Assembly (NCBI RefSeq): GCF_000143415.4 | Contig: NW_003314405.1 | Coordinates: 144,282-208,281, forward strand | DNA length: 64,000 bases | Source: Selaginella moellendorffii | Taxonomy: Eukaryota; Plantae; Lycopodiophyta | Direction: 5' to 3' | Shown: positions 4,390-40,630 of the stretch, in pieces | Position numbering within the stretch: position 1 is the stretch's first letter | How the letters are laid out: the number at the start of each line of letters is the position of its first letter | The notes under the pieces: generated by a model | Database searches by the model: none | The model's input: the letters and a program-made list of their open reading frames with translations, nothing else | Told to the model about the DNA's origin: nothing | Made by a program: the position numbers and the translations under genes

Positions 4390-5536
4390 TGTAAGCCACA
4401 AATTTTTCTTTTCTAATTTGCCAGCTTACCTCGTCTATCCGTCCAACACTGCCTTGGCTTTTGCTAAGTTCCCTCGCCAAGGTTCTCGCCTATGGTACCA
4501 GCTCCTACTTGGTTTCAGCTACTCACTGCACGAGCAATGGAGTGTTAGCCATCCTTCCACGGATTCCCAAATCACTCCCAATCCCCCTCCCCGGGTTAGA
4601 CTGGACTAAGGTTCGGCTACACTCCCCACAAGCACAAGCAGCCAAGCACACCAAGCTTCCAGGTTCCTAACATCCCTTGGTACCACAAGACTTGATCATG
4701 GGACCCTCTAAATCCCAAGTCTTGAGTGCAACACTTGCTTCGGGACGTCGGGGCGAAACACCGTGGCCTAGCGGCCCGGTATGGGTACCTCTCGCCCCCC
4801 ACTTCCATCCCGAAGGAAGGCCCAAGCCCCTAGGAAGGGCGAGGACCAATGAGCCGCATGGTACTCAAGTGGGGCACCACTCCACATGAGCCGGGAGCAC
4901 CGCAATCGGTTTCCCTTTCGGGAGTGGGAGCTGCTCTTGAGCACTTCCTCGGATGGCCCCTCCGGCACCAGCCAAGTCCATGCTCACTCCCACCCAAGGC
5001 CCCTCGGTCCCAGTCCCAACCTCAAGTCAGTTTGGAAGCCCAACTGGAGAGTCCCTTCAAAACTGGTTCCTGGACCTCACTATCCCTACTATACTTTTGG
5101 AACCCCCTGCAGCCCCCCCCCCCTGGGGGACGCACGCTTTGGGCTTTCACCCCTTGACCCGTATTAGTATTTGGACTTAGTCTCTGGCTCGATCTCGGAT
5201 CCGATTTCGGATCCGACTTCGGATTCGGTCTCGGACTCGATCGCGGACTCGATCTCGGACCCGATCTCGGGCCCGACCTCGGACTCGATTTCGGACTCGG
5301 TCTCGGACCCGATTTCGGATCTCGGACTCCGTCTCGAACTCGGTCTCGAACTCGGACTCGAACTCGGTCCCCGAGTCGGTCTCGGACTCGATTCCGGACT
5401 CTATCTCGAACTCGGTCCTAGAGTCGGTCTTGGACTCGATCTTTGACTTGGTCCCATCCGATGAACTCTTTGTCATTTTGGTCATGCTTTCGGGGTTCCT
5501 TTAGCCTACGACACCTCGGCGAGCTGGTTCCTTACA
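4390..5536 (-). repeat. 3' LTR of chromovirus
   Basis: Near-identical to 10772-11918; contains a GAGTCC/GAGACC-type hexamer array at ~5185-5445. Confidence 0.95.
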
Positions 5537-5548
5537 ACTCCACCACCC
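5537..5548 (-). promoter_or_regulatory. Polypurine tract of chromovirus
   Basis: GGGTGGTGGAGT directly adjacent to the 3' LTR. Confidence 0.85.
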
Positions 5549-5599
5549 ATAGAAGAAGTTCGATGCCCACATCGAACGTCTCGTTTTATCCTACGACTT

Positions 5600-5938: not shown

Positions 5939-8675
5939 TTAATTGAACTTTGCATAAGTACATAGAGTTCTGCCATGCAGAAATTCCTCCACTAGATCTC
6001 GCGCGTTCGCTAGGTTCTCCTCCGGTTCCCATGTTGCTTCGCAGTGTGGAAATCCTTTCCACTTCACATGGAACTCTCTCACCTCGCGTCCTTGTCGCTT
6101 GCTCTTGCGCGCATTGAGGATGGCCTCGACTTCGTATTCCTCTTCCCCTTGGATAACCTCGGGTAGAGGTCTTACTTGGTCCTTGCGAAGCGGATCCTCA
6201 AAGTACGGCTTGAGTAAGTTCACATGGAACACTGGGTGCATCTTCCCCATCTCTCGAGGAAGTCGGAGTCGGTAAGCCACTTTACCGATTCGTGCCTCAA
6301 TCTCGTAAGGCCCCGCGAACCTGCTTAAGGAACTCAAGATCGATTCATTTACAGGAATACATGCATCTTTACCTTTGGGTCAACTTTCGGCTGATCCCAC
6401 TTGGTAGCCTGAGGTTCTTGGTGTTCAGCCACACCTTCTCCCCAGCTTGGAACTCCACATCTCGACGCTTTTGGTTCGCGTACTTAGTTTGCCTTTGTTG
6501 AGCCCGTTCCAAGGAATCCCTCACTAGATTCCAAATGTTGAGTCTTTCCGCCGTGAATGCCTCCACTGCGGGTAACTCTCCATGATACTCGGCCACACCG
6601 AGTTCCACAGGACCTTCAATAGCTCGCCCATTGATGACTTCCCATGGACTCACCCCGATGCTCGAATGTGGTGAGTTGTTATAACACATTTCCGCAAGTC
6701 CCAAATGACTTACCCAGTCGGTCTGGTCTCCCGAGACATAGCATCGCAAATAATCCTCCAGCTGCCTATTCACCCTTTCCGTTTGTCCGTCTGTCAAGAA
6801 GTGTTAGTGCCATCAATCTTGACTTAATACCCATTACCTGTCTGTGGGTGATAGGCTGTGCTGAATTTCAACTTGGTGCGATACTGTTCTAGGAGTGTCC
6901 TCCAGAACCTACTAGTGAAGATCTTATCTCGATCTGAGATAATCTCTTCCGGCCTTCCCCGCACTCGAACCATTTGTTCGAAGAACAGCTTCGCCACACC
7001 TTCCGCATCCACGTCCGTTGTGGTGGGTATGAAATGTGCCATCTTTGAAAATCGGTCCACCACCACGAATATCGCATCGAACCCCTCGCTTGGGGGTAGT
7101 CCCGTGATGAAGTCCATCGTGAGACATTTCCACGGACGATCTGGAATGGGGATGCTTTGCAACAAGCCCCCACTAGCCTTCGTCACGGCTTTGATTTGCT
7201 GACATATTGGGCATGTCTTTACATAGTCTTGGACGTCCTTAGCCATATCTGGCCAATGGTACTTCCTTTTGAGTAAGCCCATCGTCTTGGGCACTCCGCC
7301 GTGTCCCGCGAGAGGTCCGTCATGACACTCTTCCAAGGCTACCTTCCTTAGTTCCCCTTCTGGGACATACACCCTCGTTTGCTTGTAATAAATGAGTCCG
7401 TTGCGTTCCGCATAGCCCGTTTTCTCTTCCGTTGGCAGCTCACCTCTCTGGTGAGCTTCCCGCGCCTCCAGATTCCTCAACAACACTTCTTGTGCTAGAC
7501 CATCGTTCTCATATGCTGTCCGCACATCGTCCCAGAAGGTTGCTGTTGCGCTGGAGATCGCCAACCTCAAGCTCGCTTTTCGACTTAGCGCATCTGCCAC
7601 GATGTTGCTCTTCCCAGGCTTGTACAGAATCTCGCAATCAAACTCGGCCAAGGCATTGGCCCACCGACCTTGTTTCCCTCTCAGGTCGGGTTGTGACAAG
7701 AAGTGTTTCGTTGCCACATTGTCCGTGTAAACCTTGAAGTGTCTCCCAAGGTAGTGTCGCCACTCCTTGAGCGCCTTGACCACCGCAAACAATTCCTTCT
7801 CGTGGGCAGGCCACTTCCGTTGAGCCTTGTCCAGCTTCTTCGAGAAGAACGCTACTGGATGGTTGTCTTGCTTCAAAACTGCGCCCAACGCAAAGTCCGA
7901 AGCATCGGTGTCTACCTCAAAGTCCTTACCAAAGTCTGGTAATGCCAACACCGGAGCCTTCCTCAACTTCCCTTTGAGGTGGACGAATGCCGCCTCGCAT
8001 TCCGCTGTCCATACCATCTTCCCTTTTCCTGTTTGATCCGTTAAGGGCAGGGCTACTCTCGAATAGTGTCTGATAAACTTTCGATAGTAGTTGCATAGCC
8101 CCAGGAATGCCCTCAACTCATGTACATTCGATGGTCGCTCCCATTCCTGGATCGCTTGGACCTTCTCCGGGTCCACTTTGAGCCCGTCCTGGCCCACCAC
8201 ATGCCCGAGAAACTTTACCTCTCGTTGAGCAAAGTCACATTTGCTCTCTTTAGCATACAGCTTGTGTTCCCTTAGTTTCTCAAACACCTTCGCCAAGTGT
8301 TCGGCATGCTCCTCTAGCGTCTCGCTATAGATCAGGATGTCGTCAATATAGACGACCACGAAGTGATCCAGATAGGGTACAAAGATGTGGTTCATCAACG
8401 CCGAAAACGTTGCCGGCGCATTGCACAGCCCAAAGGGCATCACCAAAAACTCAAAGCTCCCATACCTCGTTCGACAGGTTGTCTTCTCGACATCTTCCTC
8501 AGCTACCCTGATCTGGTAGTATCCTGACCTTAGGTCAATCCTCGAGAAGTATTTTGCCTTTCCCAACCTATCGAACAGGTCCTCAATCCTTGGCAAAGGG
8601 TACTTGTTCTTTTTGGTATACTTGTTGAGCAACCGGTAGTCTATGCACATGCGCATAGATCCATCTTTCTTTTTT
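5939..8675 (-). CDS. pol: Pol: RT, RNase H, integrase, GPY and chromodomain; three exons (approx. 8675-6838, 6790-6373, 6320-5939)
   Basis: Motifs [34 protein letters not shown] zinc finger and [13 protein letters not shown]. Splicing restores [12 protein letters not shown] and KLTQRFAGPY. Chromodomain EYEVEAIL...FHVKWKGF...TWEPEENL. Confidence 0.92.
6321..6372 (-). other. Predicted spliceosomal intron 2 in integrase (52 nt)
   Basis: CCAAAG|GTAAAG...TTAAGCAG|GTTCGC; AT-rich; removal gives T-Q-R-F-A-G-P-Y in frame. Confidence 0.85.
6791..6837 (-). other. Predicted spliceosomal intron 1 in integrase (47 nt)
   Basis: GACAG|GTAATG...CACTAAC...TTGACAG|ACGGA with a CTAAC branch point; removal gives H-P-Q-T-D-G-Q-T-E. 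Confidence 0.88.
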
Positions 8676-10712
8676 CACGAATAGCACCGGCGCCCCATAC
8701 GGCGACTTGCTCAACCTAACATACCCTTTGTCCACCAACTCCTCTAGTTGGCTCTTGAGCTCCTTGAGTTCTTTTTCGTTCAATCGATAGGGTGGACGAA
8801 CCACCGCCTCAGCACCCTCGACCAGCTCAATCTTATGTTCAATCGGTCGTGCGGGGGGCAACCCCGCCGGTAGCTCCTCCGGCATGGTATCTTGGAATTG
8901 GTCCAGCACCTGCTGGATCACTAAAGGTACTTCTTCCGTTCTTGTCTTTTTGTCACTCTTCACCGAGAGTAAGCACAAAAAGGCTGCTTTAGTTCCTTTA
9001 GTGAGTTGTCCTCTCGTGGACACCAGGTTTAAGCATGACTCTTTGGCCTTGCTTTGCCCTACCTTTAGATCCTGGGCCTCCACCCTAGATCTTCTTCCTT
9101 GGGCATTCGCCAATACCACAAGGTTCCTACCTTGTCCATGCAGGGCTACCACGAACCGATTAAACCAATCCATTCCGAAGATCACTTCAAATCCCGCCAT
9201 GTCCAAGACGGTGAAATCCATGTCCACTTTCCATGTCCCCACTTTGACTCTCGCTTGTCGAAGTACCTCATCGGTGCTTTGGCTACCCTGAACAAACTCT
9301 ATAGTCCTTGGTTCGCCTAGCCGCTGCACCATTAGTCCGGCTTGCCGGACTATGTCTGCAGCCACAAAATTATCCGAAGCACCCGTGTCAATAAGGATCT
9401 TAACAAAGCTACCTCCGAGCTTCCCTCGGAGGGCTAGTAGATGTCGCGAACGACTCTCTACCAAAGTTGCTCGTGTAATGAGTAACTTTGAGTTAGGGAC
9501 TGGATCACATACCTCAGTTTGGACTTCACCCGACTTGATGGCCATATTGGCTCTGGCCTTCTTCGGGTAGGGACATTCCCTTGAGAAGTGTCCCGCTTCG
9601 CCGCAGTTGTAGCATACGTTGTTTCCCACGCTGCTATACGACTTGACCTTCTTATCCGTGGGTTTGTCTTTTTTCGCTTGACTCCCCCACGTACTCGCTC
9701 GCTGGCCACCGGATTTGCCTTTCCGGAACCCCGAGGACTCATTCTTAGAGAAACTCTTTTTGAATTTCCCCTTGCTATACGTTCCCCTTGGTTTGGCCCC
9801 TTTGCTAAATGTGGATCCCGACCCCGTCGTGTTCCCCTTTCGCAGGTTATCGTTGAAATGCACCTTGATGGCCGCATCCAACGCTTCCTTGTAGTTGGTC
9901 GGGTTCCACCGCATCACCTCATCGCGAGCCCAGGTTTGCAAACCTGATATGAAGGCATGGAACGCATCCATATCCCCCATGTCCGTGACCAGTATCCTCT
10001 TTGCCATGAACCCATTCACATATTCCTGGATGGTTCCAGTCTGCTTTAGCCTACTCAGCTCATCTCTCAGATGCAGAGTGGCATTCGGAGGAACGTATGT
10101 TGCGCAGATCCTCGCCTTCATCATGTCCCAAGTGGCCACTGGTCCTTCGTTGGCCTCCGTCGTTCTCCACCAAGACTTGGCATTATCTGCCAAGTATGGT
10201 TTTGCACATGGGACCTTCTCCGAGCTCGGTAATCGCAACGCTCGGAAGTAGTCCTCCATATCGTAAAACCAATCCTCCACCACTTTATAGTCGTTCACTC
10301 CCTTGAAGACCGGTGGGGGCTTTGGTTTGTACTTGGGAACTGCCTGAGGGACTGATTCTACTTCGGTCTGTTCGACCTTGTCTGGTTTTGCCTCAGTCCC
10401 GGCCGAAAGATCCGCACCTTCTGCGCTGCCAGCATCCGCAGTCTTTTTCTTTTTCTTCCGCCTCTCGTCACGCTTTAGCTTGCGTACGAGAGTTTCCAGC
10501 AGGGCATTGGTCTGTGCCAACTGTCCTTCTAGCACGTCCAATCGAGCCTTGGACGACCGAACCTCGCCACCGGACTCCTGTTTGGAAGTTTCCTCACTAG
10601 AGTCCTCCTCATGCAAGGATTCCTCATCCATAGCCTCTTGTTCGACCGGAGGCTCCAGCTCCGGTGGAGGTTCCGTCTCCGCCTGGGTTCGCTTATGCCC
10701 TGCCCTTGCCAT
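8583..10712 (-). CDS. gag: Gag (retrotrans_gag, CCHC zinc knuckle) plus aspartic protease and start of RT; out of frame with pol by one extra A at ~8670-8675
   Basis: [14 protein letters not shown] knuckle, LIDTGAS protease motif and [12 protein letters not shown]. Deleting one A restores [15 protein letters not shown]. Confidence 0.93.
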
Positions 10713-10756
10713 CTCCCAGCAATCCGCCTCTATCCTTCGCTAGAACTGAGATAAAG

Positions 10757-10768
10757 GCTCCGATACCA
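10757..10768 (-). promoter_or_regulatory. Primer binding site of chromovirus (tRNA-iMet type)
   Basis: TGGTATCGGAGC 3 nt inside the 5' LTR boundary. Confidence 0.88.
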
Positions 10769-10771
10769 AAT

Positions 10772-11918
10772 TGTAAGCCACAAATTTTTCTTTTCCAATT
10801 TGCCAGCTTACCTCGTCTATCCGTCCAACACTGCCTTGGCTTTTGCTAAGTTCCCTCGCCAAGGTTCTCGCCTATGGTACCAGCTCCTACTTGGTTTCAG
10901 CTACTCACTGCACGAGCAATGGAGTGTTAGCCATCCTTCCACGGATTCCCAAATCACTCCCAATCCCCCTCCCCGGGTTAGACTGGACTAAGGTTCGGCT
11001 ACACTCCCCACAAGCATAAGCAGCCAAGCACACCAAGCTTCCAGGTTCCTAACATCCCTTGGTACCACAAGACTTGATCATGGGACCCTCTAAATCCCAA
11101 GTCTTGAGTGCAACACTTGCTTCGGGACGTCGGGGCGAAACACCGTGGCCTAGCGGCCCGGTATGGGTACCTCTCGCCCCCCACTTCCATCCCGAAGGAA
11201 GGCCCAAGCCCCTAGGAAGGGCGAGGACCAATGAGCCGCATGGTACTCAAGTGGGGCACCACTCCACATGAGCCGGGAGCACCGCAATCGGTTTCCCTTT
11301 CGGGAGTGGGAGCTGCTCTTGAGCACTTCCTCGGATGGCCCCTCCGGCACCAGCCAAGTCCATGCTCACTCCCACCCAAGGCCCCTCGGTCCCAGTCCCA
11401 ACCTCAAGTCAGTTTGGAAGCCCAACTGGAGAGTCCCTTCAAAACTGGTTCCTGGACCTCACTATCCCTACTATACTTTTGGAACCCCCTGCAGCCCCCC
11501 CCCCCTGGGGGACGCACGCTTTGGGCTTTCACCCCTTGACCCGTATTAGTATTTGGACTTAGTCTCTGGCTCGATCTCGGATCCGATTTCGGATCCGACT
11601 TCGGATTCGGTCTCGGACTCGATCGCGGACTCGATCTCGGACCCGATCTCGGGCCCGACCTCGGACTCGATTTCGGACTCGGTCTCGGACCCGATTTCGG
11701 ATCTCGGACTCCGTCTCGAACTCGGTCTCGAACTCGGACTCGAACTCGGTCCCCGAGTCGGTCTCGGACTCGATTCCGGACTCTATCTCGAACTCGGTCC
11801 TAGAGTCGGTCTTGGACTCGATCTTTGACTTGGTCCCATCCGATGAACTCTTTGTCATTTTGGTCATGCTTTCGGGGTTCCTTTAGCCTACGACACCTCG
11901 GCGAGCTGGTTCCTTACA
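10772..11918 (-). repeat. 5' LTR of chromovirus
   Basis: Near-identical to 4390-5536. Confidence 0.95.
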
Positions 11919-12469: not shown

Positions 12470-14041
12470 TGTGAGACACAAAATCACTAGGCCCCAAAGT
12501 GGAGCTGAAAGGGTGCCACATGGTAGTGGCTGAAGCGAAAGCCAAACGAGCGTAACACGTTTGGACTAAAAGCTCCGACTTGAAAAGGTCAAGAGTGGGA
12601 GTGGAACTCCCAACGAAGTGCTTGAGGAACGAGCACGAAGCGAGCAATAAGCGAGGCTCCAAAAAGGGACCCAAAAGGACCAACACATGACACGTGGAAG
12701 TGTCCGAGATGGACTCGAGTTGGGGTTCGAAGTGGAGTCCGAGACGGAGTCCGAGGTGGACCCGAGATGGACCCGAGGTGGAGTCCGAGATGGAGTCTGA
12801 GATGGACCCAAGATGGAGTCTGAGATGGACCCAACATGGAGTCCGAGATGGACCCGAGATGGAGTCTGAGATGGACCCGACATGGAATCCGAGGGACCCG
12901 AGATGGAGTCCGAAGTCGAGACTGAGACTGGAACCGAGACCGAGACTGAGACCGGGACCGAGGCCGAGGCCGAGACCGAGCCCGAGTCCGAGCCCGAGTC
13001 CGAGCCCGAGTCCGAGTCCGAGTCCGAGTCCGAGTTTGAGTCTAAGAGGGTGAAAGCCCAAAGCGTTCATCTCCTAGACCCTGGGGGGTTTGGTGAGCTC
13101 CAAAAGTATAGTAGGGGGAGGACTGCAGTGGAGCCAGTTTGGCCAGGAACGGCCAGTTTGGCCCAGGAAGGCCGGACCCAGTATTGGGTGATGAGCTGCC
13201 CACTGGGAAGTCCAAGACTAGAGTGAACACGGACCGACAAGCGGGGTAGCTTGGTGAAGTGTTCAAGAGCCGACTCTAGTTCCCTCGAGAGATCGACTGG
13301 CCGATGCTCCCAATCCAAGTGTGGGTGGCACTACCTACTTGGATACCTGGTGTGGCTCAATGGAACCTCACTCTAAGCCCATGGCTAGAGCACCCAAAGG
13401 CAGAAGGCGAGGAGAGTACCCACGAGGCCCGCGTAGGGCCACGGTGTTCCGAAATGTTGCCCCAAAGTCCCAGACTGTGGAAAGGAAGAAGAGTAGTCCT
13501 TTAGTGTGGTGATAAGGGACACAGTCACACCGTGAGGAAGTCCCAGAGGACAGTTGGACTTAGTGATCGGGCCTGTGGGCCTTGATCCAGTGGCAATGTT
13601 GGTGAACGCGGCCATGGACAGGAAGGGACTTGGTGGGGACCGGAAAGGAGATATTGGGGAAGGCTATTCCCCATGTCTGCAGGCATTTTGAGGATGCTAT
13701 GGAGTGGATCTGGGATAGCCACTCATGGATGGATGGCCTAGTCTTTGAGAGACGGGATTGTAATGCAGGTGGTGTTGAACCACCGGGGTGACCAAGGTGA
13801 ATGGGCATGGCTTTAGCGTAACGGGCCGATATGTTGGTGGTACCTCGGGGTGCCGGTCATAGGATCGGACACGTGGAGCACTTGGACCAAGTGCAAAGGT
13901 GGAGTGGCATGAATGCCATTCTCGGGGCTAATAAGCCCCAAGTCCTAACTGAGACTTATGGAGGTTGTGAATGAGACTCCTCCAAGTGGTCGGAGGTGCG
14001 GTTAAGTGACTAAAGTAAAATGGAAAAATTAGTCATTTACA
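12470..14041 (+). repeat. 3' LTR of family A element (1572 bp) with hexamer/12-mer minisatellite at ~12700-13045
   Basis: TG...CA ends, preceded by the PPT, matches 1-836. Confidence 0.9.
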
Positions 14042-14255
14042 ATATAGAGGTGGGGTTCGAGTCTTTAACCCTTTAGTGCTTGAGTTCGAGTCTCAACTGA
14101 CTAGGGCATGGTGATGGTTTGGAATATGAGGACACTCATTTTTGGTGGTATGGACTCTCAATAAAGAAACTAGCTTGGGCACACTGGTAAGTGGGGGATA
14201 TTTTAGAGTCGTAATGCACAATTATATTGCTTAGTGTGAAAGCTTGGCATATCTA
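14042..14255 (+). mobile_element. Fragment of an older family A internal region (structured RNA segment)
   Basis: Diverged match to ~3370-3585. Confidence 0.75.
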
Positions 14256-14810
14256 TTGTTTCATTTTCTCCATTTTTAGATCTTATTCTTGTACTAATAA
14301 TTTTTTTCCAAGGGATTTGAATTGAAAGCTACTTCAACAACATATGGAACTATGAAGATCCATGAGGGTTGCTTTCCTTCCTGTTTGGATCACCTTCTTA
14401 AAGGTGGGCAATTCTCTCAAGAAATTATCAAAAAAGTGCTTTTAACCTTGGCAAGAGTTTAATTACAGTAATAAATGTAGCAAAATCTTTATCTTTATAG
14501 CTTTCTATCATTTCCATGCATGTTGAGGAACAGTGATCATAAAGCGGATGCTATAGGGCTTTGCCTATAGGATAGTGTCGAGCTGGTGCAGATCATGGGC
14601 ATAACTCACCATAAAAAATGTGCATAAAATGAGCTCTTGCATAGCAAAAATGTTTCCTCATCCATTCACAAACTATTGGATTGTAAAATAAACTTCATTT
14701 GTTGAGCCAATGTGATCCAGAGTGCAATTCATGCCATGCACAAATCATGGTTTATGTGGTACTGATGTGGCAAATGGTCACATGTACCTATGGCCTCCCA
14801 AGAACTAAAT

Positions 14811-14813
<3 letters not shown>

Positions 14814-14865
<52 letters not shown>
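14814..14865. repeat. (CT)n microsatellite
   Basis: About 26 CT units. Confidence 0.95.
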
Positions 14866-14866
<1 letters not shown>

Positions 14867-15565
14867 ATGTAGCACTGGATTTTTATATATGACATGCAAA
14901 ACCATGCATGACCATACCAAAACAAAAATCAAAAATCCATTTGTAACTTACAAAAACTTTCCATTTTACATGAAAAGTCTTACATTCACGTACATGTACC
15001 AATCACACATATGGGCACACCTGCCAAACTTGCTGCCACCCAGGTTTGGGAAAGGCCCAGCTTTGTGGAGTGTAAGTTCAGCACAACTGTACTTGAGATC
15101 ACCTTAGAAACCCTTTGATAACAAGAGAACATCCTTCCCGCTAGTGAGGCGTGATGTGACTTTTTTTTTTCCAGTCACAAATTAGGCCTTAAAGCCAACT
15201 TGCAGAGCCCAAGAACCGACATGTAACAGAACTAGAGATCAAACACACCCTATCCTATCTGCTATCACAATTTATAGAGATGAAACAAACTTAGAAGTTC
15301 CAATATGTATACTTGTTGAAAAATTAGATTTAATAAGAATTACAAATAACTACTAGTTTCCAACAAAAAATAAGATTGCCCTACTTCTTTCTTATGGAGT
15401 CAGCCCACACTGTCGACAAATTTTCCTATGGCATGGCTAATACAAGCAAGACTGATGCCAATACAAAGGCCACATATCCCAAACCCCATATCCAACACTC
15501 TATCGTGACAATAGAGACCATCCCTTATTGTGATCCTAACCCCTATATTCTCTATCTTAAAATGT

Positions 15566-18500
15566 AAGGCACCAAGGATGTGGTGAATGAGATGGGGAGA
15601 TTTAGTCTCAATTGCTATGGACCTTTGGTTGGAGATAACTTGGGTGCACCACCAAGTGTGAAGAATGCCCTTAGAGTCATGGTTAACAATTTAAAGATCT
15701 AGAAGACATAATATTTATTGGCAAACCTATTAAGGTGTCAAAATGAGATCACTAAGTGATCCTATGGCTAAATAAGGACAAAATCCTAGTTAGGTTAAGG
15801 AATAAGGTTCATGGTTCAAAGTGTTGATTTGAACTGTTAGTTATTGTGTGAATTGGTTGAAGTGACTAAGTGGAAAGCACAACTAAAGGAAATGAGTTAT
15901 ATCAATATGGTGAATCCAAGAGAAGTAGTCTTTAAGAAAGACTTATGAGAGGGTTACAAAGTTGGGCCATGGATAAAGCCTATAATAGAAATGCTAAAAA
16001 GATTTATTAGAGGTGAACACTCCCTATATTTAGTAAAGCAAATTTTTTGCTATGGAATTGAAAAGATATCTCGAGGATGGAGGTAGTGATCATATGTTAC
16101 TTGATACAACAATCAAAGGATAGGGTGCACACAGCTGTCATCGAGAAATGCCTCAATCACATCACCCCGAAACCACTCCATATAGCAAAAATCATTGATG
16201 TTTGATACTAATGGATTTTGGGAAAAGAAATATGTTTCTAAGGATGGATTCCCAAATACTCCAATTTGGCAAAGGTGAAAGCTCAAAAGGAGAGAGTGAC
16301 AAGAAAGCCAAATGATAGGGCCTTGGATATCCATAGCACAAATTATGGATAAGTGGAATTTAATGGTTAAAGTGGTACAAAATAAAAGAGAAGATGATAG
16401 TGCCCTCAAGCAAAAAACTTCTTAGGATAAAGAAGTGGAGTTTGCATAACATATGTAATGCAAGGTGTCGAAGATATCTAGGAAATTGATTTTGAGAAGT
16501 CAAAATTAAAAATTCTAAAGTGTGATGGTTATGTTTGATAGATGCTGAGACTATTCAGGAATGAATAGTTGGATTGAAATAGAGAAGGTGTCTCTAACAG
16601 GTTTAGCGAGAATTAAACCAAATAAAGGGAGAGAACCACCACTAGTGGTATAATAAGTTTCTAAGTTGAAGAGATTATATTTCTTAGTGTAAGCAACTAA
16701 AGGAAATCACTCGAGAGACGATCCATAAGGGTTTAAATATAAAGAGAAAGGTCCCATGAATAAGAGTGCACCCTCTTTTTCAATCGGTTAAGGGTCTTGG
16801 GATGTTTAGGGTTAAGCGTCCTTGGGTTTAAATAATACTTGGCTGGGTGACCTCCCAAGAAGTCTAAATTCAGGAGTTTACACTTGGATGATGGGCAAGG
16901 CATGGTGAGCCTTCAGTGTCAAACCATTGATGAATATTACTTTGATGCTAAGGACAAAAAGAGTAATATATAATGGTGTTACTTTATAAAATAATTTATT
17001 ATTTGATGAGGACATCAAATTTCGTCTATGGGTGGTGGAGTTGTAAGACACAAATCCCTAAACCCCAGAGTGGAAATAATTTATCGTTTGATGAGGACAT
17101 CAAATTTCGTTCATAGGTGGTGGAGTTGTGAGACACAAACCCTTAAACCCCAGAGTGGAGCAAAAAGGGTAGTGGTCGAACAAGTGTAATATATTTGGAC
17201 TAAAGGCTCTAACTTGGAAAGTCAAGAGTGAGTGGAACTCTGAACAAAGTGCTTAAGAAATGAATTGCTGAATGAGTTTCTAAAAGAGGATATAAGAAGG
17301 ATTGATACATGGCAAGTGTCGTGACACATGGAAGTGTCAGGAACAAGTCCAAAAAGGAGTTCAAGAAAGAGTCTAAGATGGAGTCCGAGATGGACCCAAG
17401 ATGGACCCGAGATGGAGTCTGAGAAGGATTTGAGATGGAGCCTGAAGTCGAGTTTGAGGTCAAGACCAAGACTGAGACTAAGACTGAGACTGAGATTGAG
17501 ACTGAGACCGAGACCGAGACCAAGACCGAAATCGAGATCGAGAACGAGACCAAGTTCGAGACCGAGTCCGAGTCCGAGTCCAATTTTGAGTCCAAAAGCA
17601 AGTCCAAGGGTGAAAGCCCAAAGCATTCATCTCCCAAACCTTGGGGGGTTTGGTGAGTTCCAAAAGTATAATAGGGGGGAGCACTTCAGTGGAGCTAGTT
17701 TGGTTAGGAAAAGCTAGTGTGACCAAGGAAGTTATACCCACGTGTTGGGTGATGATATATCCATTGAGGAGTTTAAGGTTAGAATGAATACAGACAGATA
17801 AGTAGAGTAATTTGGTGAAGTGTTTGAAAATCAACTCTAGCTCCCTCGAGAGATCGAATGGTCAATGCTTCCAATCCAAGTGTGGGTGGCACTATCTACT
17901 TGGATACCTTGCATGGCTCATCAGAACCTCACTCTATCCACATAAGTAAGGCACCTAAGAGTGGAAGGTCGGGGAGTACCCACGAGGCTCGTGTAGGGCC
18001 ACAGTGTTTCAAAATGTTGTCCCAAAGTTTCAGACATGGAAAAGAAGAGGAGTAATCCTCTATATAGTGACCAAAGATATAGTCACATGGTGAGGAAGTC
18101 CCAGAGGTCAGTGGGAATTAGTGGTCGAGCCTTTGGGCTTTGACCTAGTGGTGGTGTTGGTGAGCATGGCCGTGGATGAAAAGGGATTTGATGGGAATGG
18201 AAGATGAGATATTGGGGAAAGGTGTCCCCCATGTTTTTAGGCATCCTAAGGGTGTTAAAGTGTGGTCAAGGGATGACCACTTATGGACAAATGGCTTAGT
18301 CTTTGAAAGACAGGACTATGATGCAGTTGGTCTTGGACTATTGATGTGACAAAAGTGAATGGGCATGGATTTAGCCTAACGGGCTGATATGTTGATAATA
18401 CCTTTGGGTGTTGGTCAGGGGATCGAACACATGGAGCAATTAAACTAAGTGCAAAGGCTGAATGGCATATATGCCATTCACGGGGCTAGCAAGTCCTTAA

Positions 18501-18797
18501 ATCTAGAATAGAACTTATGGAGGTTGTGAGTGAAACTCTTCCAAGTAGTTGAATGTGTAGTTAAGTGATTAAACTAAAATGGAAAATTTAGTCGCTTACA
18601 ACTTGGTGTTGGAGTTATTCCTTAGTCCAACCCTTATTGGTGGGTAAGTATTGGCATTGGAAGGTCCCAGAACTGGGTTTATCCTCAAAGAGTAGCATGT
18701 CGAAAGGGCATAACTCTCCACTTTGGTTCATACGTGAACACGTTAGCAATGTGGTGGATAAAAAAGGGTTATTAAGGGAATAACTTTAGGATTTTAG
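15566..18797 (+). mobile_element. Older degenerate family A copy: 3' internal region, PPT, LTR (~17127-18600), degenerate PBS and start of a further internal region
   Basis: Colinear with 3605-4389, 11924-14041 and 837-1045, with many transitions. It lacks the chromovirus insertion. Confidence 0.85.
16688..16882 (+). mobile_element. Cassandra-like TRIM solo LTR carrying a 5S rRNA internal-promoter-derived segment
   Basis: TGTAAG...TTTACA, 195 bp, TSD CTTAG/CTTGG, absent from the homologous site at ~12311. GTTAAGCGTCCTTGGG...AATAATACTTGGCTGGGTGACCTCCCAAGAAGTC resembles the plant 5S box A-IE-box C region. Confidence 0.75.
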
Positions 18798-19749: not shown

Positions 19750-22700
19750 TGACAGTACTTCAATAGATTTTTAAGTTTTCCAAGTTTTCTCAGCCTTGTG
19801 GACCTCCTAGTGCTAGCAAGAAACTCATCGTCTCCTGAACTTCCTCGTGTAGTTGCTGACCGTTACAAACAGTTGGGCTTCTCATTGTCAAAGTCATTTA
19901 GAATCTATTCAAAAACTCGCTTCAGGTCCTACACATGCTTCTTCACAGTCTACTTTTTGTTTTCATTCATGAAACCCATAGTGGGCAACATGTTATCTAG
20001 AATGCCAATTATACCAAGCAATGCTAGTGTTGATGAGAGGTTTTCAATAAGACTAAATGGCAACCAATGCTTGACCGCCTCAAGGTATGGGAACATTCTA
20101 AAAGCATCTGTAATTCAAAAGCATCAACATATGTAAAACAAAGCTATTCTAAATACCTTTAAAGTCTTTGTTTGCCCTTCTTGTAGTAACAATTCAATAA
20201 TAACTTGATCACCTATTGCACAAGCCACAACTAGGGGTACTCGACCAATGTTATTTATGTTATTAAAATTTGATACTCTAGAAATAAATTCTTTGACCTT
20301 TGCTTTCTAATGCTTTGTGATTGCATGGCATAGCATATCAATCCTTACTTTTACCATTGTCAAGCTGTCCATTCTAAAAAAAGGAATTTAAAAATAAAAG
20401 AAAGAGCAAAAATAGTAATAACAAACCCAAAATCTTCTTGCAGTGAATGCCAAGGAAAATTTGCAATCTAGGATCATGGAAGTACAATCCAAAAAAAGTG
20501 GATGGTGGTGGATGTAGTGGTCAACCTCAATGGTGTGCTTGCCATCCTTGGAAGCTATAAGAATAAAGTACTGCAAAAAGAAACGTATGAAGTAAAACAA
20601 TGTAGAAACAAATGAGTGAAAAACCTTACCTTGGGAATATAATCTTTGCATTTTGTTCAAAGAACAATTAAATCATCCAAAGTTGAGAGCTGCTTAAAAA
20701 TAACTATGGCCTTTACCATGGATGGTATAACTTTGTGGCAATGTTCTTGTCGCGCATGTGACTTCGGGTATCGAAAGTTACCTGTCGACCAGTCCTTACG
20801 GACACTCTTACCTTACTGCCACGATGGCAGGAGGTCGGTATTGCTGGACCCTTTATTAGCCCCTCTTGTGCTAGTGGAGTTAACTGGGCATTTCGAGTGT
20901 ACTTAGACCGGACGAGCATAAGGACGGAATTCCTACGTGTTATTAGCTAAGCATACTTAGCCCGGTAAGGAGTTCCCGTCTCGTTTTGTCTTGCACTTGC
21001 TAGTGACAAGAACCCTCGCGTATTGAGATTGGTCCCTCAATATCGCTGGATGATAGCTTTCCGTGTCTGCCAAACACCCTCGCTATCATACCCTTTGTGT
21101 TAGTCTCATTCCGGTCCCAGAAGCTATTTATGGAAAGTGTCCAGATTTGCTCATTTGGCATATCTACGGAATGTAGAGATCGGTCTGAACACAATGGTGT
21201 TCGTCCCGTGTCCAAATTTGCATTCTAGCGCCATTCCATATTTAGTAAGTTTCAAGCTTGTCCCAGAGACTAACTCCTGGTACTAAGGGTAGGCTTGGGG
21301 TGAAAGCCCAAAGCGTGTGTTCCTCAAGGGGGGGGGGGCTATGGGGGGTTCCAAATGTATAGTAGGGATAGGGGGTAGGTCGGGCATGGCCGACCAACCT
21401 GAGGCATAGTTTAGCTCCCGCTTGCGTGCCTGTCCTTGTTCTGCGTCCGGCTTGGGTCTAAGCCCAAGTTCCATTCCATGCTAGTTGGTGGAGTACCCAT
21501 GTCCTCGCGTTAGGCCACCGGTATGCCGAAATAGCGCCAGACTCCGTTTGGCTCCGTTTTGCATGCTGGTCCTGGCATTGGGATGCTGGTTGCTCCAGGA
21601 CTGTTCCAAGTCGCTCTAGGCTCCTGTCCCTTCGCTCCTTGGGTTTTATGCTCGGGAGTTGCTCCGTGGCTCGGTTCCGTCACTCCTTGGCTTCGTGCTT
21701 GGGAGTTTGGCACCGTTCCTTCGTTCAGTGGCCCAAGGCCCTGAACCTCGGGTTCCTATGGACACGTGGCATGGACACATGGCATGTGACACGTGGCATC
21801 TGTCACGTGGCACAAAGAGGGTTTAGGTTCCGCTTCGTGGTGTTATCCTATGGTAAATCACCATAGGATAAAGGGTCAAAACCACGTGCGCTACATTTGG
21901 TATCAGAGGCTACGTCTCAGCGAGTACTATTCAATGAGATTGGGCAACTAGTCTCGTTGCATACGCAGAGATGAAAACGATGATCCGAGTGGGTACACGT
22001 ATGGGTGCAAAGACTTCGCGTTCGTTCTTTGGGTATGGATTTGGTTACCTTGTTGTACCATATTTTGTGAGCTTGAGCTTGGGCTCACAAGAGGGATTTG
22101 AGATGTTCCGTTCGCATGGGTTTGAGCTTGGGCTCATGAGTGAGGCACATTAGCAACTCAAAGTTACATTTTGAGTTGGCAGGATTAATGTTAGCCTATC
22201 GGTGGTTCCATGAGTTGTTCCAGTGGTTCCATGAGTTGTTCCTTGTACCATGGGTTTAAGTAAACTTTCCCTGGGTTTGCTATGAGTGGCAAATAGGCTG
22301 GTCCGTAGCTGTTTAGCACGGCACTAGTGGATCCTTCCTAGGCGTGGTTACAAGTGGATCAATCAAGACTATAGGGATGAGTCTATTGATTCAAGTAATC
22401 ATTGCCGTGCTCTCTCATAAACTTTTCTTGGATTGGACTGAAGGCAGTGCGAAAGCAAGCTTGAGGTTTAGTCAAAGATAAGACCAAAAAGAGAGTTATC
22501 AGGGACGAAGGATCAAACACGTAAATCATTTTCTCTTCTTGGAGATATGATTTGCAACAAGGTGTTAACTCATTGCTCATGTTCCCATCATGCAATCAAG
22601 AGTCCCTACCTTGATGCATATTGGAAATGATAGTCTTACAAATGGCAAGTTGTGGGATGGATAACGGTGAAGCGTTATACCATTTTGTCTAGGCTTGCTA

Positions 22701-25700
22701 TTGAAAGACTTGGGTTGCAATGCTCAATTCTTTTCCGGGGAATCTTGCTATTACTCCTTGAGTAGCTTGGTGTTGGATTAGTTTTGAGTTTGGTCGGAAA
22801 GAGAGTGGCATGAGCTTGTCCGTGTTGTGAACAAAAGTTAGTGGTGTTAGGTGTTATAAATCTCTATCGATGGAGTGTGGCATTTATGTTGCATTTTGTC
22901 GAATCGAGTTGACACTTGATACTCACATAAACCTTTGAAGTAATGACATTGGCATTGCTCATAATGTTGCTTGATTGATGATCAAGTCATTGTGATACTT
23001 ATATCATATCCATGTGATAATGAGCAATGTGTTTACAAAGTTTCTTGGTTAAACGATGATCAACCCCAAAGTGGTTGATGGTGAAGCTAGTCTACTTGCA
23101 TGTAGTAGCATTGTAGTAGCTTTGACTGGATTCTCAATGGTGGTCCATTATGCTAAGCTTAAGTTGGTTCCTTGTTCCTTGGGTTTGCCCATAAGATGTT
23201 GGAAAAGGGTTATAGCATTTATTTGCTATGGCTTGTTGGTTTATCCGTTAACACTTGGAGTAAGTTATTGGATGGAGAAAGTGTGTAGTTGAGGCATTGA
23301 CATCGCTAGCACTTCTGTTAGTGGAAATGGCATTGTTACTTCGAATGATGAGGAATTTTCCTTAGAGCTTGATTTTCCATGTCATTTTTCTTGTTAGTGT
23401 TTTGGCTTCACATTGGATCTTGAAAGTGGTTGAAGAAGAGTGTTAGTGCAATGTAGATATCCGAAGATGTGGTCTTCGTGATCAAGCCTTGGATGTTCAC
23501 TTTGCATTTTGCGGATGTCAGTGTTGGATGTCGGATATATGGGCAAAAAGATGTTCGATGCTTAAGCATGCTATTAGGTCTTGAGAATTTGTGTTGAGGT
23601 GAACTTATGTGAAGTTGTTAGTAGGAGGAAGTTGGTTGAGTCTTAAAAGTTTGTATTTCTAGACTAAGAGTCATTCTTTCTCTAGGATGGAAATTTTTTT
23701 CCACAAATTTTCTTAGGCTTTTCCAATGGCTGATCTGTTGATCATTTTGTCCGAAAACCTTTCCATTTCGTAAAGCCAGTACAAACTAGTGAAGGGGTTG
23801 GAGTTGACTTTGGTTGGCTTAGACCTTAGTAAGTAGTTTGTATGATGCGACCCAAAAGGGATGCTGACTTTTGAGGCTAAGGCAATTGAGTTGGATAGAG
23901 TCTGGAGTTGGTATAGAAAAGTGGCCATTGCACTTTTCTAAGAAGGGTGACCCTTGTGCCTTTCTTTTGTAGCATTATGCTTGGTGGCAAGTTGCACTTT
24001 GCATTTTGTTAAGACTCTATGAGAGTAGTGAGCTCTCACTGATCTTGACTTGGTCTTGGTAGCCTTGCTCCTTGGCTGAGGATGGTGATGTTCAACTTAG
24101 TTGTTTGCGGTTGAGATGTTGGTACCCATACTATAGCTTTGTCTAAGTGGAGGTTGTGTACCGACATGAGTCCGTCTCATGGTCTTCACTTGAGTTTCGA
24201 CTTAGTGTTGATCATGTATAGCTAGCCTCTTCAAGGCATGCTCAGAGCTAGTGGCTAAATGCATTGGTGAGCTTGTCGCGATTGAGTCGGATTCGAGTGG
24301 TCATTTAGTTTGTGCTTGTCTATGAACCTTTATCTCGTCCATGAGGTATTATGTTCATGTTGGACAAGTATATGACTCGATGGCATGAGTTTAGTGTTTG
24401 GGTCTTGTGAAGGCAAGTTGAAAGAGCGATTGTTAGTTGCTTTGCGACTAGTGATTGCTTGTAGATTTTGTCGAAGACTGTGACACTTGCTTCACTTGAT
24501 GATGATTCAGCAGTGATGGACTTGCTTTATCGGATGGTGTTGCGGAGGATCGTGTCATTAGACTTATATGGTTTTCCATGTTGGTATGTTGACTCTACCT
24601 CTGTTTATATCATTTGGTTGCATTTAGTTCATAGTGTTGGATTTCATGGAGTCTTGGATGTGGTGATTCACTCCTTGAGGAAGTGTTATTTTTAACTGAG
24701 TTTTGCTGAAGAATTGGTCTTGGATACTGAGTAAAGTATCTTCGACTTTGGTTAGCTTGGTTGCAAGAGAGTTTTGAGTGGTGATTCACTCTTGCCTTCT
24801 TCTAGCTTTGTTATGGTGTTAATGGCATTAAAGTGATGCCTTGTCATTGATATTATTGATGTTGAGATTCAAGTGAGATGAAATGTTTCTCCTTAGGTTT
24901 GACATTGAGTTTCATTAGTCTTGACGAAGATAGTGTTGATGATTTGGCTATGGCTTAGTGTTATTGGCATTTGTGCAATTGCTAGTTAGCAACTATGTTA
25001 GCATTCAAAACAAGCTGAGTGGCAAGTTTGAGTTGCGTTCTAGACGAGATTATTTAGTAGGGGTTGAGCTTTGGCTTTTCCTTGAAAAGTGATTTAGTCG
25101 TGGACTATACTAACTCTACAAGTGGAAGAGTTAGTGATTGATATTGAAGATGTTGGTCCATTGTTGGATTTGCGTTGAGATATATCAATCATTGGTGATT
25201 CTTCTTGTGCTTGTTATGACGTGAGTTACGTCTTGCTATAGATGGATTCATGGAGGATCGGTTAGTGATCACTTGTTAAGCATAGCTCCATTGTGCCTGG
25301 TTTTTGGATTGATGCAGATATGCTCTTCATTAGCTTTGGCATTATGAAGTTTGGCTAAGGATATGTTGAGGAGGATATTGTGGGTTGCACTATGATTTCT
25401 TCTTTAGCATTGAAGTTAGTTCATGCAAGACTTGTGATCATTATTAGGCAAGACTTGGCTATAGACTTCTTTGAACTTTTGGTTCTTTGAGTTTTATGTT
25501 CATTGTTCCATTTGTTCGAAGTTGTTGGGGAAGGCATTTTGGCTCATTAGCTTCAATGTTGAAGTTAGTATTTGCATCTAGCAATCATAGATGATGATGG
25601 ACTATCATCTAGGATAGTTGATTATTCTTGTCAAAGGTTTTGTTTGATTATTGTTGGTATAGAATGATTTGCCGTTCTTTGGATGGTAGATTGTTTCTTC

Positions 25701-28323
25701 GACGATGATTATGCATCTCCTCATTGGTGGGATGATTGATGTTCTTTCATGATAGTTAATTGTCCTCCTTGATGGCTTATGGCTTTTCGCAATACCACAT
25801 GTTCCTTGTGGTTTGCCTTGGATTGGTCTGTTGGGTTTGAAACATCCAAAGGATGTTGCTAACACTTGCTTAGGCAACTTGAGTTCCTTGGTGTTGTTGG
25901 CTGGGATCTATTCGGATTGGCTAGTGTGATAGTTGGCATGAATGGGTGTTTGTTGGTCTTACTGCATTCATTCTGTTCTGTTGATTATTGCTCGAGTTAG
26001 TTCTGATAGATTAGAATGTTATTTCCTTCGGGTGATACATTCGCGAGCATTATGCTTGTCAGTCAATGATACTTTGTGTTCTTTGAGTTATCTTTAGTAA
26101 GTTGTTTGGCATACTATCTACCATCTTCGATAGTGAAGTTTCATCATTGAGTGTTCTTGATGATATACTTGCTATTGAATTTTGTTGGATGGTGATTCCT
26201 ATATTTACCAATTAAGATGATCTTGGTGGTTCCTATGCTTTACTACTGGTTTATCGGATGATAACTTACTTGGAATACTTTTGTGTTCTAAGATTTCATC
26301 ATTGATAATTAAGTCTCTAAGATATCATTGTTTATGACTTTGATATTGTCCATCTATTGATCTATGAGTTTGGGCCAGTAATGGGCAGACTGGCTTCGGC
26401 ACTTCGTGTGCATGGTGAAATCTCTAGTCATGGGGTAGCTACTGTCGACTGGTCACATCACCCGCCTCTTTGTCGATGTTCCTTATTCCGTTGAAAGGGC
26501 GTGACCGTGTAAACAACTCTAACTGCCTGTTTACAGTAGTCTATCTAAACCTTACCGACGGGTTTGGTTTCTTTGCTTAGGAGGGTTGGGGCCTCTGGCT
26601 TCTCTCTCTATGTCTCTGCGGGCAGGGGCATATCACTCTTTTGTAGCTGGGTGACTCCCAGAGCAGCAAGGGTGGCTAACTCCGTTGGTCATTTCCTTGT
26701 CGGTGACGGCCGGAAGGTGTCTGAGCTGGTAGCGCATCCGCGTTAGACAAAGAGGTTACCCCTAACTCATTTAAGTTGGTGCATTTCTCACATAGTGTGA
26801 ATACCGTGAACTTTTTCCGGAGTTGTTTCCTTGGCGGTATTCTAGACTCGAGTGTGCATCGACGAGGACGTCGATCTTCCCTAGGGGGGGAGAGTGTCGC
26901 GCATGTGACTTCGGGTATCGAAAGTTACCTGTCGACCAGTCCTTACGGACACTCTTACCTTACTGCCACGATGGCAGGAGGTCGGTATTGCTGGACCCTT
27001 TATTAGCCCCTCTTGTGCTAGTGGAGTTAACTGGGCATTTCGAGTGTACTTAGACCGGACGAGCATAAGGACGGAATTCCTACGTGTTATTAGCTAAGCA
27101 TACTTAGCCCGGTAAGGAGTTCCCGTCTCGTTTTGTCTTGCACTTGCTAGTGACAAGAACCCTCGCGTATTGAGATTGGTCCCTCAATATCGCTGGATGA
27201 TAGCTTTCCGTGTCTGCCAAACACCCTCGCTATCATACCCTTTGTGTTAGTCTCATTCCGGTCCCAGAAGCTATTTATGGAAAGTGTCCAGATTTGCTCA
27301 TTTGGCATATCTACGGAATGTAGAGATCGGTCTGAACACAATGGTGTTCGTCCCGTGTCCAAATTTGCATTCTAGCGCCATTCCATATTTAGTAAGTTTC
27401 AAGCTTGTCCCAGAGACTAACTCCTGGTACTAAGGGTAGGCTTGGGGTGAAAGCCCAAAGCGTGTGTTCCTCAAGGGGGGGGGGGCTATGGGGGGTTCCA
27501 AATGTATAGTAGGGATAGGGGGTAGGTCGGGCATGGCCGACCAACCTGAGGCATAGTTTAGCTCCCGCTTGCGTGCCTGTCCTTGTTCTGCGTCCGGCTT
27601 GGGTCTAAGCCCAAGTTCCATTCCATGCTAGTTGGTGGAGTACCCATGTCCTCGCGTTAGGCCACCGGTATGCCGAAATAGCGCCAGACTCCGTTTGGCT
27701 CCGTTTTGCGTGCTGGTCCTGGCATTGGGATGCTGGTTGCTCCAGGACTGTTCCAAGTCGCTCTAGGCTCCTGTCCCTTCGCTCCTTGGGTTTTATGCTC
27801 GGGAGTTGCTCCGTGGCTCGGTTCCGTCACTCCTTGGCTTCGTGCTTGGGAGTTTGGCACCGTTCCTTCGTTCAGTGGCCCAAGGCCCTAAACCTCGGGT
27901 TCCTATGGACACGTGGCATGGACACATGGCATGGACACGTGGCATGTGACACGTGGCATCTGTCACGTGGCACAAAGAGGGTTTAGGTTCCGCTTCGTGG
28001 TGTTATCCTATGGTAAATCACCATAGGATAAAGGGTCAAAACCACGTGCGCTACAGTTCTAAAACCTCTAGCTATTTTGCCTCTTCAAAGAGATACCCAT
28101 TAGGTGCTTCTATTTTGTAGAAAACCAACTTCCCAAAACTAAATGAGAGAACATAAAACTAGAAACAGAGACAAAAGACTTACTTGTCCGAGTTGTAAAT
28201 GATGGAACCAGAGCCAGAAAAATAGTATGTCTTCCAGATGTTAGGCTTTTGCAAGCGGAACCATTCAAGAGGAGTTTTTACCAATTCACTCACCATGTCA
28301 AAAAGCACATTGGAACTCACCAT
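19750..28323 (-). pseudogene. Degenerate multi-exon gene with an ankyrin-like repeat, interrupted by the LTR element at 20748-28055
   Basis: GT-AG bounded segments on both sides of the insertion (donors ~28183 and ~20628). The segment ~20155-20370 translates ...GRVPLVVACAIGDQVIIELLLQEG. Multiple stops. Confidence 0.4.
20748..28055 (+). mobile_element. Young non-autonomous LTR retroelement (LARD-like, family B)
   Basis: LTRs 20748-21895 and 26895-28055 (TG...CA; 2 substitutions and one 13-bp repeat-unit indel seen). TSD GTTCT. PBS TGGTATCAGAG at 21898-21908. PPT at 26883-26894. The 5 kb internal region has no retroviral ORF. Confidence 0.93.
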
Positions 28324-39249: not shown

Positions 39250-40399
39250 CACAGCATCACAGAAGCATCCATCGCCCTTGAAGCGCCATCGCGACCATCT
39301 ACCCAGAAGCGCTGCTCTAAAAACCCTAAGTTGGAGGCTAAAGAGAGAGGATTTGGCAAGTATGGTCCTCGGACAGGTAGTACTCTTCAGAGATCTCTGA
39401 AATCCGCAAGAAACTTCTCCATGATCGCATCCGCGAGCTGGGTAGTGAAGCTTCGTCTGCTGCTCAAAGTTCTGCGATAGGTTGGTGGCTATCGTTCCAG
39501 CACAATGGTTTGTCGGCGCTTTCAAGTATATAGGGAGAGCTTGATACAGGAGTTCGCTGTGGACCCGAGGCGGATGACATCCACTACCGTCAGGTCGCCG
39601 TGATGCGCGATATATAAGATTAATTAAAGGAAGAAAAAAGATGAAAACTGTTGATCAAAATGGAGAACTTTGACGAGTGATAATACAGCTTGAGTGGCAA
39701 AATTATCAAATGCATAGCACTGGAAGAGAGCATGGACGATCGTTCTGGTGAGAGTGATTGTGAAGGGCAGTCATTACAAGTGCGAGCACCATGCAAAATG
39801 CTGTGGTGGATCTTAGCTTGAAATTCTGGCTAGTTCAAAAGCTTTGAGTGATGAAAAAAAATAAATGAACACAAGATGATTTCCAAAGGGAGCCTGTGAC
39901 AAAAAGATTTACATTTGGTGGAAGTGTTTTTAGAAGAAAAGTCTGTTTCTTTTTACCATGAGCTTTGAAGAGCAAAAATCTAAACTTTCATACCTCTTTA
40001 ATATTTTTGTGTGTAAAAGTATTTTTTCATCTCAAAACCAAGCTTTATCATGAAGGAAAGATTCACTTTAAGTTAAGAAATTTCTAATTTACAGTATGTT
40101 ATTGGTTCGAAATCTGACATATATTGCTTCCAAATAAAGCAAATTAAGTGCAGCAAATTATTTTTATAAATATATTTGTAAAAAATATTTTTTTAAAACT
40201 CTTATCTTTTAGGTTAATGCTAGTTTTGGGTAAAGGGAGTTTTAATAAACATCTTTTAATTTCCACCTTTCTATCTAGCATGTTCCTATAATTTTATAGA
40301 CTATTTAGAAGAAATTACTGTCAAAATTTACAATATATTACTAAAATTCTTACACATATTAAAGTATATTTGTGAAACCTTCTTATAAATATTAATTAC

Positions 40400-40630
40400 A
40401 ATAAGATGTTAATTTTCCATAAGTATTTTTCCAAACTCTTTATCTTCAAAGTTAATCTCACCATCTTCAATTGAAATATGAACACCTTCCAAATTAGCAA
40501 GTCTCACTTTAACCAAACCATTTTAAATCAATATAAAAACTAATAGTATTAAAATTCCTATGCACAAACCCTTTAGAATGAAATGTGTGTAATGTCATTT
40601 CAGTGCATTAACTTCTCCTTGATAATCCCA
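40400..40630 (-). pseudogene. Decayed 3' remnant of the 48643-50001 nuclease-pseudokinase gene
   Basis: Diverged match to 48640-48895 with indels. Confidence 0.75.

Follow-up and report, generated by a model that had tools for sequence, protein, structure and literature searches.

Two spliceosomal-type introns inside the integrase of a young Selaginella chromovirus, spliced in probable RNA and retained through retrotransposition

The stretch of Selaginella moellendorffii DNA analysed here (64,000 nucleotides of contig NW_003314405.1, positions 144,282 to 208,281; hereafter the window) carries on its minus strand a Ty3/Gypsy chromovirus that is very likely the described family SM1-Galahad. The integrase coding sequence of this element is split over three frames by two short inserts. 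We found these inserts to be introns: contigs of two runs that are probably RNA, each from a different study, lack both of them to the nucleotide, and the introns are family-wide, spliced, and retained through retrotransposition. The feature is real and RNA-supported, and it constitutes a variant of intron-gated Pol expression in a family whose introns have apparently gone unrecognised. The layout of the element is as follows.

Between the long terminal repeats (LTRs) 10772-11918 and 4390-5536, minus strand: Ty3/Gypsy chromovirus element, 7529 bp in total
10772 to 11918, minus strand: 5' LTR, 1147 nt, TGT...ACA, with an 11-nt G run and 12-nt tandem repeats
10756 to 10768, minus strand: primer binding site (PBS), 13 nt, beyond a 3-nt spacer; presumably complementary to the initiator tRNA-Met
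6838 to 10712, minus strand: exon 1, encoding Retrotrans_gag, zf-CCHC, protease (PR), reverse transcriptase (RT), RNase H (RH), the integrase (IN) zinc finger, and the integrase core as far as HPQT
6791 to 6837, minus strand: intron 1, 47 nt, phase 1, GT..CTAAC..AG, with a TAA stop at 6826-6824 in the pol frame
6373 to 6790, minus strand: exon 2, encoding the catalytic Glu of the DDE triad, the end of the core domain, a linker, and the start of the SH3-like C-terminal domain
6321 to 6372, minus strand: intron 2, 52 nt, phase 2, in an AG/GT...AG/GT context; its retention gives an immediate in-frame stop
5939 to 6320, minus strand: exon 3, encoding the GPY motif, the remaining SH3 domain, a group I chromodomain, and the stop
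5537 to 5550, minus strand: polypurine tract (PPT), adjoining the 3' LTR
4390 to 5536, minus strand: 3' LTR, with 2 differences from the 5' LTR

By every feature tested, the element is a chromovirus. Its Pfam domains run in the order gag, zinc knuckle, protease, RT, RNase H, integrase zinc finger, core, SH3, and chromodomain, which is the gag-PR-RT-RH-IN order of that group, and it has a PBS, a PPT, LTRs with TG..CA ends, and a 5-bp target duplication (CCACC) outside both LTRs. The chromodomain (PF00385, E 2e-16) lies in exon 3 and is fused to the integrase only once the RNA is spliced. Near-identical LTRs together with a target duplication are the mark of reverse transcription. The count of 2 mismatches in 1147 nt given in the preliminary description of this locus was reproduced, with the target duplication added to it, and the element is a young copy of a high-copy family. 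Its best named homologues over RT-RH-IN are angiosperm elements at 51 to 52% identity; among the 120 proteins listed by that search, none exceeded 61% identity and none was named as a Selaginella protein, while a search with exon 2 alone gave one distant match among 11 candidates. The window copy itself has a defect that the preliminary description did not mention. A run of six A at 8670-8675, where contigs of the sequencing runs X15 and X1 have five, throws gag-pol out of frame where RT begins and is either a private mutation or an assembly error. The element is nested in an older LTR-type repeat (1-837/13206-14042 and 3658-4386/11918-12314) whose flanks resemble 15583-16686 at 72 to 78%, and several decayed related LTRs lie at 12809-18795 and 31200-33278.

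Both inserts have GT-AG ends and stops in the incoming frame, and their removal gives HPQTD/GQTE and KLTQR/FAGPY, where the slash marks the joint. On all of these points, as on the coordinates, the lengths, and the CTAAC of insert 1, the preliminary description proved accurate. The choice of boundaries is well constrained. Near junction 1 there are 16 GT-AG pairs of 40 to 70 nt, 3 of which open the frame, and the DGQTE codons are kept by 6837-6791 only; near junction 2 there are 13 such pairs, 6 of them opening the frame, and the 10-residue spacing of KLxxRFxGPY is obtained from 6372-6321 only. Among 120 listed homologues, DGQTE directly follows the HPQT-type motif in 92 of the 101 in which that motif is detectable, and the second motif has the 10-residue spacing in all 60 that match it. 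The GC content of the inserts is 0.38 and 0.365, versus 0.515 in the flanking pol exons. Their size is that of host introns, as had been claimed, since four frame-checked introns of a CtpA-like gene in the window (62322-62818) measure 47 to 51 nt. With GT-AG ends, AU-richness, a branch motif, and host-like size, the inserts show the features of U2-type introns. Neither has a match elsewhere within the 64-kb window.

The branch motif of intron 2 is weaker in the window copy than in most copies. At position 6342 the DNA run X2 differs from the window copy over 99.9% of its depth (and at 6367 over 96%), and the majority letter at 6342 creates a motif of the YTRAY type, the branch-motif consensus, 19 nt before the acceptor; the window copy is without it. 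Intron 1 has GACAG both at the exon end and at its own end, and it contains an inverted repeat of 7 bp whose arms are predicted to pair across the 3' tract. In the predicted fold of 6761-6867 (z -2.79, with 3 of 200 shuffles equally stable), an exon-exon stem brackets the intron and the 7-bp stem covers the 3' tract. Hairpins are predicted at both 3' splice regions, with z scores of -2.79 and -1.55 versus +0.91 and +0.08 in two host introns, and these putative structures over the acceptors would fit, weakly, the model favoured below, in which splicing sets the Gag:integrase ratio.

Splicing was sought in contigs from three different studies (X15, X17, and X18), all probable RNA. In X15, one 2500-nt contig aligns as 8590-6838, 6790-6371, and 6318-5992 without interruption, so that both introns are absent exactly; the 2-nt offset at intron 2 reflects the AG/GT ambiguity. 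X18 likewise has both skips (52 and 47 nt), each bounded by CT..AC as read on the plus strand. The joined junctions 6838/6790 and 6373/6320 predicted by the preliminary description are thus present in two of the three data sets. In X17 both introns are retained: its contigs span intron 1 and extend into intron 2. Rare alleles are common to these unspliced contigs and to the spliced contigs of X18 and X15: six of the seven alleles common to X17 and X18 occur at no more than 1.4% of X2 depth (three of these are absent from X2), and four further alleles common to X17 and X15 occur at less than 3%. The trace signal in another DNA run, X13, carries the majority alleles, unlike X17, which is the pattern of trace DNA. 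X17 therefore seems to represent unspliced transcripts of an expressed copy and not contaminating DNA, and over 6230-6930 the apparently transcribed copies in all three data sets belong to a rare sub-lineage. Raw reads from two RNA runs (X23 and X24, about 12/100 of each run) yielded 5 and 1 reads, not enough to show a joint.

The introns are present in the DNA runs X1, X2, and X13. Among 11,962 X2 contigs aligned over 0.7 kb, neither intron skip occurs among all 10 joints, where joints down to a depth of 7.7 are visible, and depth at the intron sites is within the range of the exon sites. Among 37,589 X1 contigs aligned over 3.1 kb, no intron skip occurs among the best 15 of 45 joints. Contig data cannot prove absence, yet many intronless copies would have made a best-supported joint. 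These counts bear on whether the joined contigs are rare intronless DNA copies, with no splicing at all. The RNA status of the three data sets is a guess, and three of the X17/X18 alleles are absent from X2, so that the DNA check misses that exact copy. Against this stand the 2 and 3 aligned contigs of X15 and X18 compared with the many thousands in the DNA runs, and the presence of the introns in X17 on the same rare haplotype; a DNA copy with exact GT-AG loss would itself, moreover, derive from splicing. We regard this explanation as very improbable. A programmed frameshift or read-through was rejected in turn because both inserts contain stops and are removed exactly. In sum, that the inserts are real spliceosomal-type introns is supported.

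An insertion private to the window copy was likewise rejected, on the strength of the introns in DNA-run contigs and of the published layout of SM1-Galahad. This S. moellendorffii family is reported to have hundreds of copies of 7.5 kb, LTRs of 1076/1146, a G tract of 11 to 25, a 13-bp tRNA-Met PBS, an open reading frame (ORF) of 3885 bp (1295 amino acids) ending in the integrase core, and two short ORFs farther downstream (316 and 309 bp), of which the second carries a group I chromodomain (CHD_I) (PMC3350952). The window element agrees in length (7529 bp), LTR size (1147 nt), G run (G11), PBS, high copy number, and chromodomain; its ORF runs for 1295 amino acids up to the intron-1 stop, the extra A discounted, and its downstream ORFs measure 318 and 309 bp from the first Met, the 316/318 agreement being approximate. 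The two are thus very likely the same by size and layout, not by sequence alignment. We take the Galadriel-related clade placement of Galahad from the same paper. Where it describes three ORFs and "no intact copy", we see three exons of one spliced gene, and in PMC3350952 "intron" and "splic" have 0 occurrences.

A sister family in the same genome, SM2-Galahad, is reported as intronless, with a single 1577-amino-acid ORF and hundreds of copies (PMC3350952). Since SM2-Galahad has a single ORF, the introns were likely gained in SM1-Galahad. The short direct repeats at the intron ends (GACAG for intron 1, AGGT for intron 2) weakly fit intron insertion with duplication.

Exons 2 and 3 are under purifying selection as protein in the spliced frame. 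The variant tables were ranked by support, and the figures that follow come from the best 40 of 69 rows for X2 and the best 40 of 312 for X15. Of 16 common exon-2 variants in X2, 12 leave the amino acid unchanged when read in the spliced frame, versus a share of 0.34 expected for random transitions (p=0.001). The X15 contig differs from the window copy at 10 positions in exons 2 and 3, 9 of them synonymous in the spliced frame (p=0.0004), and at 30 in exon 1, 26 of them synonymous; none of the best 40 of its 67 differences over 6230-6930 is a stop. Because exons 2 and 3 are translated only via splicing, this mostly synonymous variation means that the spliced product is selected as protein. In these rows the introns are no more variable than exon 2: the common X2 variants number 4 in 99 intron nt versus 16 in the 418 nt of exon 2, and the expectation of faster-diverging intron interiors was not borne out.

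The same variation bears on whether the inserts are lesions of a non-autonomous family mobilised by the intact SM2-Galahad, their splicing being incidental. An intact sister family does exist in the same genome while no "intact" SM1 copy was found (PMC3350952), and the window copy and the X17/X18 copies are broken. Set against this are the predominance of synonymous changes among common exon 2-3 variants in the spliced frame, the canonical ends of two independent inserts, each of which brings back the reading frame exactly on removal, and the fact that "no intact copy" is accounted for by the introns themselves. We consider the lesion explanation improbable.

What, then, do the two RNAs encode? 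The unspliced RNA gives an integrase with two Asp and no Glu: the D-X35-E spacing places the catalytic Glu 36 residues beyond the second Asp, in exon 2, which confirms the claim that this RNA stops short of it. The doubly spliced RNA, 99 nt shorter, encodes 1557 amino acids with a full integrase. Intron 2 lies inside the SH3/GPY domain, with positions 24 to 63 of the 64 in the SH3_Tf2-1 (Pfam) profile falling in exon 3. The preliminary description had also proposed a third state, in which RNA spliced at intron 1 only would give an active integrase without its chromodomain and so alter target choice. Two separately removable introns permit this form in principle, and in the sequence retention of intron 2 does give the immediate stop that had been foreseen. 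No intron-1-only contig was found, however, in any of the three probable RNA assemblies covering the region (3/3), where contigs drop rare forms. Its product would lose two thirds of the SH3 domain, including the GPY motif, which mediates multimerisation (PMC2836005), and not the chromodomain alone; because intron 2 cuts this domain, the enzyme is likely crippled rather than untargeted. We think a three-state switch hardly probable. What survives of the overall interpretation is thus the introns, their splicing, and their retention through reverse transcription, while the target-choice switch falls away. Nor did we make any of the three observations that had been named in advance as fatal to it, namely inserts private to this copy, expression without spliced reads, or young copies that are mostly intronless.

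Since the introns are in essentially all copies, the RNA that is reverse transcribed should be the unspliced one, and from the absence of intronless DNA junctions we infer that unspliced RNA is likely the packaged genome, as had been proposed. In the model that we favour, and that we think somewhat more probable than its negation, this RNA would serve both as genome and as message for Gag-PR-RT-RNase H with a dead integrase stub, and the resulting 1295-amino-acid product would capture its own RNA in cis. Such capture would account for a tolerance of introns that is confined to the region downstream of RT/RNase H. The doubly spliced RNA would supply active integrase with its chromodomain, the 1557-amino-acid product co-assembling into the particle and bringing integrase in trans. 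The rate of splicing could then set the Gag:integrase ratio in a single-ORF element, replacing the frameshift that exercises this control elsewhere. Both introns sit in the final 28% of the ORF, a placement with a post-hoc chance of about 0.08 that weakly fits this model.

Several observations weigh against it. The RNA status of X15, X17, and X18 is a software guess, and as contigs they give no splicing rate, strand, or ends. All contigs aligned from X15 and X18 (2 and 3, respectively) are spliced, which means that splicing can be efficient and need not limit the rate. Contigs of both X17 and X18 are interrupted in exon 2 by a nonsense change at 6626, those of X18 by another at 6473; they therefore come from dead copies, whose splice competence they show, and may represent read-through transcription rather than the programme of an active element. 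The identity with SM1-Galahad, though likely, rests on agreement in size and layout. Finally, the intronless SM2-Galahad means that the Galahad lineage can set its stoichiometry without introns.

Some of these points lead to a different account, in which the introns are passengers that set no ratio. The element would keep separate RNA pools, namely a dedicated genomic RNA that is left unprocessed, like the one for which BARE uses a second TATA box, and an always-spliced message with cap and poly(A) tail, and two gained introns would simply be tolerated. The exclusively spliced contigs of X15 and X18, the thriving intronless SM2-Galahad (PMC3350952), the BARE precedent, and the short direct repeats at both intron ends, which fit insertion with duplication, all agree with this account. 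It does not readily explain why integrase holds both introns when the 3.4 kb of gag-PR-RT-RH are free of them, why X17 has unspliced contigs from a rare, apparently transcribed copy, or why hairpins are predicted over the acceptors. We judge it unlikely, while giving it more weight than any other alternative considered here.

A further step from the favoured model of cis packaging and trans integrase supply is one that we think somewhat less likely than not: the lineage, having gained the two introns, would have made an integration gate of them. Particles with an unspliced genome would be able to reverse transcribe but not to integrate, and host splicing would license integration in trans; the spliced RNA, which is 99 nt shorter and has both PBS and PPT, would be almost wholly excluded from reverse transcription. 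Host splicing is possibly stress- or tissue-dependent, as the contrast between the all-spliced X15/X18 and the all-unspliced X17 hints.

The rest of the window contains further mobile DNA and several genes. A second LTR element at 20748-28058 has LTRs of about 1150 to 1164 nt with 98.6% identity, a PBS like that of the main element, and no gag/pol similarity inside; it is a non-autonomous (LARD-like) element. Its LTR has a core motif in common with the LTR of the main element, and a 16-nt motif that precedes a G run and a TATA-like word recurs at 5151, 11533, 13049, 17609, 21299, and 27446, in LTRs of at least three families; it is likely a conserved promoter core. A 4.4-kb duplication (36270-40647 and 44473-48893, 92.7%) has intronless ORFs of 627 and 507 amino acids with a kinase-like domain at the end, and a related ORF of 459 amino acids lies at 48643-50022; we take these ORFs to resemble plant Crinkler-like or mobile kinase genes. 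Other coding regions are presumably a two-domain bulb-type-lectin-like ORF (51044-51964), an mTERF-like ORF (58579-60003) with a partial duplicate at 43787-44471, and the CtpA-like protease gene (62020-64000), whose introns measure about 45 to 84 nt.

Retrotransposition is classically recognised by the loss of introns, and in this element two ordinary 50-nt introns within the integrase catalytic domain have persisted over hundreds of rounds of copying. Only 99 nt, well away from the 5' region usual for packaging, set genome and message apart, so that the long-standing question of how a retroelement chooses its genomic RNA becomes directly open to experiment; counting intronless copies across a genome would be a free measure of the selectivity for genomic RNA. 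There is also a correction to annotation, in that a family reported without an intact copy is likely intact and spliced; if so, ORF-based surveys miss active families in genomes with small introns. With SM2-Galahad reported as a single ORF, the intron gain is moreover datable.

In the open literature, with subscription papers, Repbase, REXdb, and Additional files 1 and 3 of PMC6317226 outside the search, we found no report of introns inside the integrase of an LTR retrotransposon or in SM1-Galahad. A 2025 review describes plant LTR elements as generally intronless and names Ogre and EVADE as exceptions (PMC12786077), and the accessible parts of PMC2864245, PMC7175516, and PMC13192763 have nothing on integrase introns, the last covering LTR introns only. 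A degenerate pattern for introns at the integrase site (one His codon, a 35- to 65-nt gap, and part of codon space) had 0 matches in viral contigs, and its sole match in metagenome contigs was rejected as a chance match in a continuous 1093-amino-acid importin-like ORF.

Among known systems, Penelope-like elements also keep introns through retrotransposition and include a spikemoss family with an inferred intron, but they are non-LTR elements with a GIY-YIG endonuclease or none, their introns lie mostly in the 5' untranslated region or N-terminal part (PMC8557442), and they keep them by another mechanism. Ginger1 has a Gypsy-type integrase with a GPY/F motif and one to four GT-AG introns; it is, however, a cut-and-paste DNA transposon with terminal inverted repeats and no RT, so its introns are never reverse transcribed (PMC2836005), and the window element, with direct LTRs and a full RT-RNase H, does not have that layout. 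In BARE1, EVADE, and copia, splicing in a single-ORF element is tied to the Gag:Pol balance and the spliced RNA stays outside the replicated pool (PMC3735527, PMC12786077); for BARE1, for instance, no DNA form of the spliced RNA was found (PMC3735527). The polarity is reversed, however: in those elements Pol is lost by splicing and the full polyprotein comes from unspliced RNA, whereas here splicing creates it. The closest parallel is Ogre, in which a stop-bearing intron is kept in genomic copies and is spliced from a subset of transcripts, enabling the whole polyprotein (PMC6317226). The window element is gated in the same way, with introns in its genomic copies and both spliced and unspliced contigs. 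The single intron of Ogre, in contrast, is about 270 bp long, lies between ORFs at the PROT/RT position, and gates RT as well as integrase in a non-chromovirus of the Tat lineage (PMC6317226), while the window element has two introns of about 50 nt in the catalytic and C-terminal domains of integrase, has integrase alone gated, carries a chromodomain, and shows no PR-RT break in the X15 contig. The window element thus works like Ogre but is not an Ogre.

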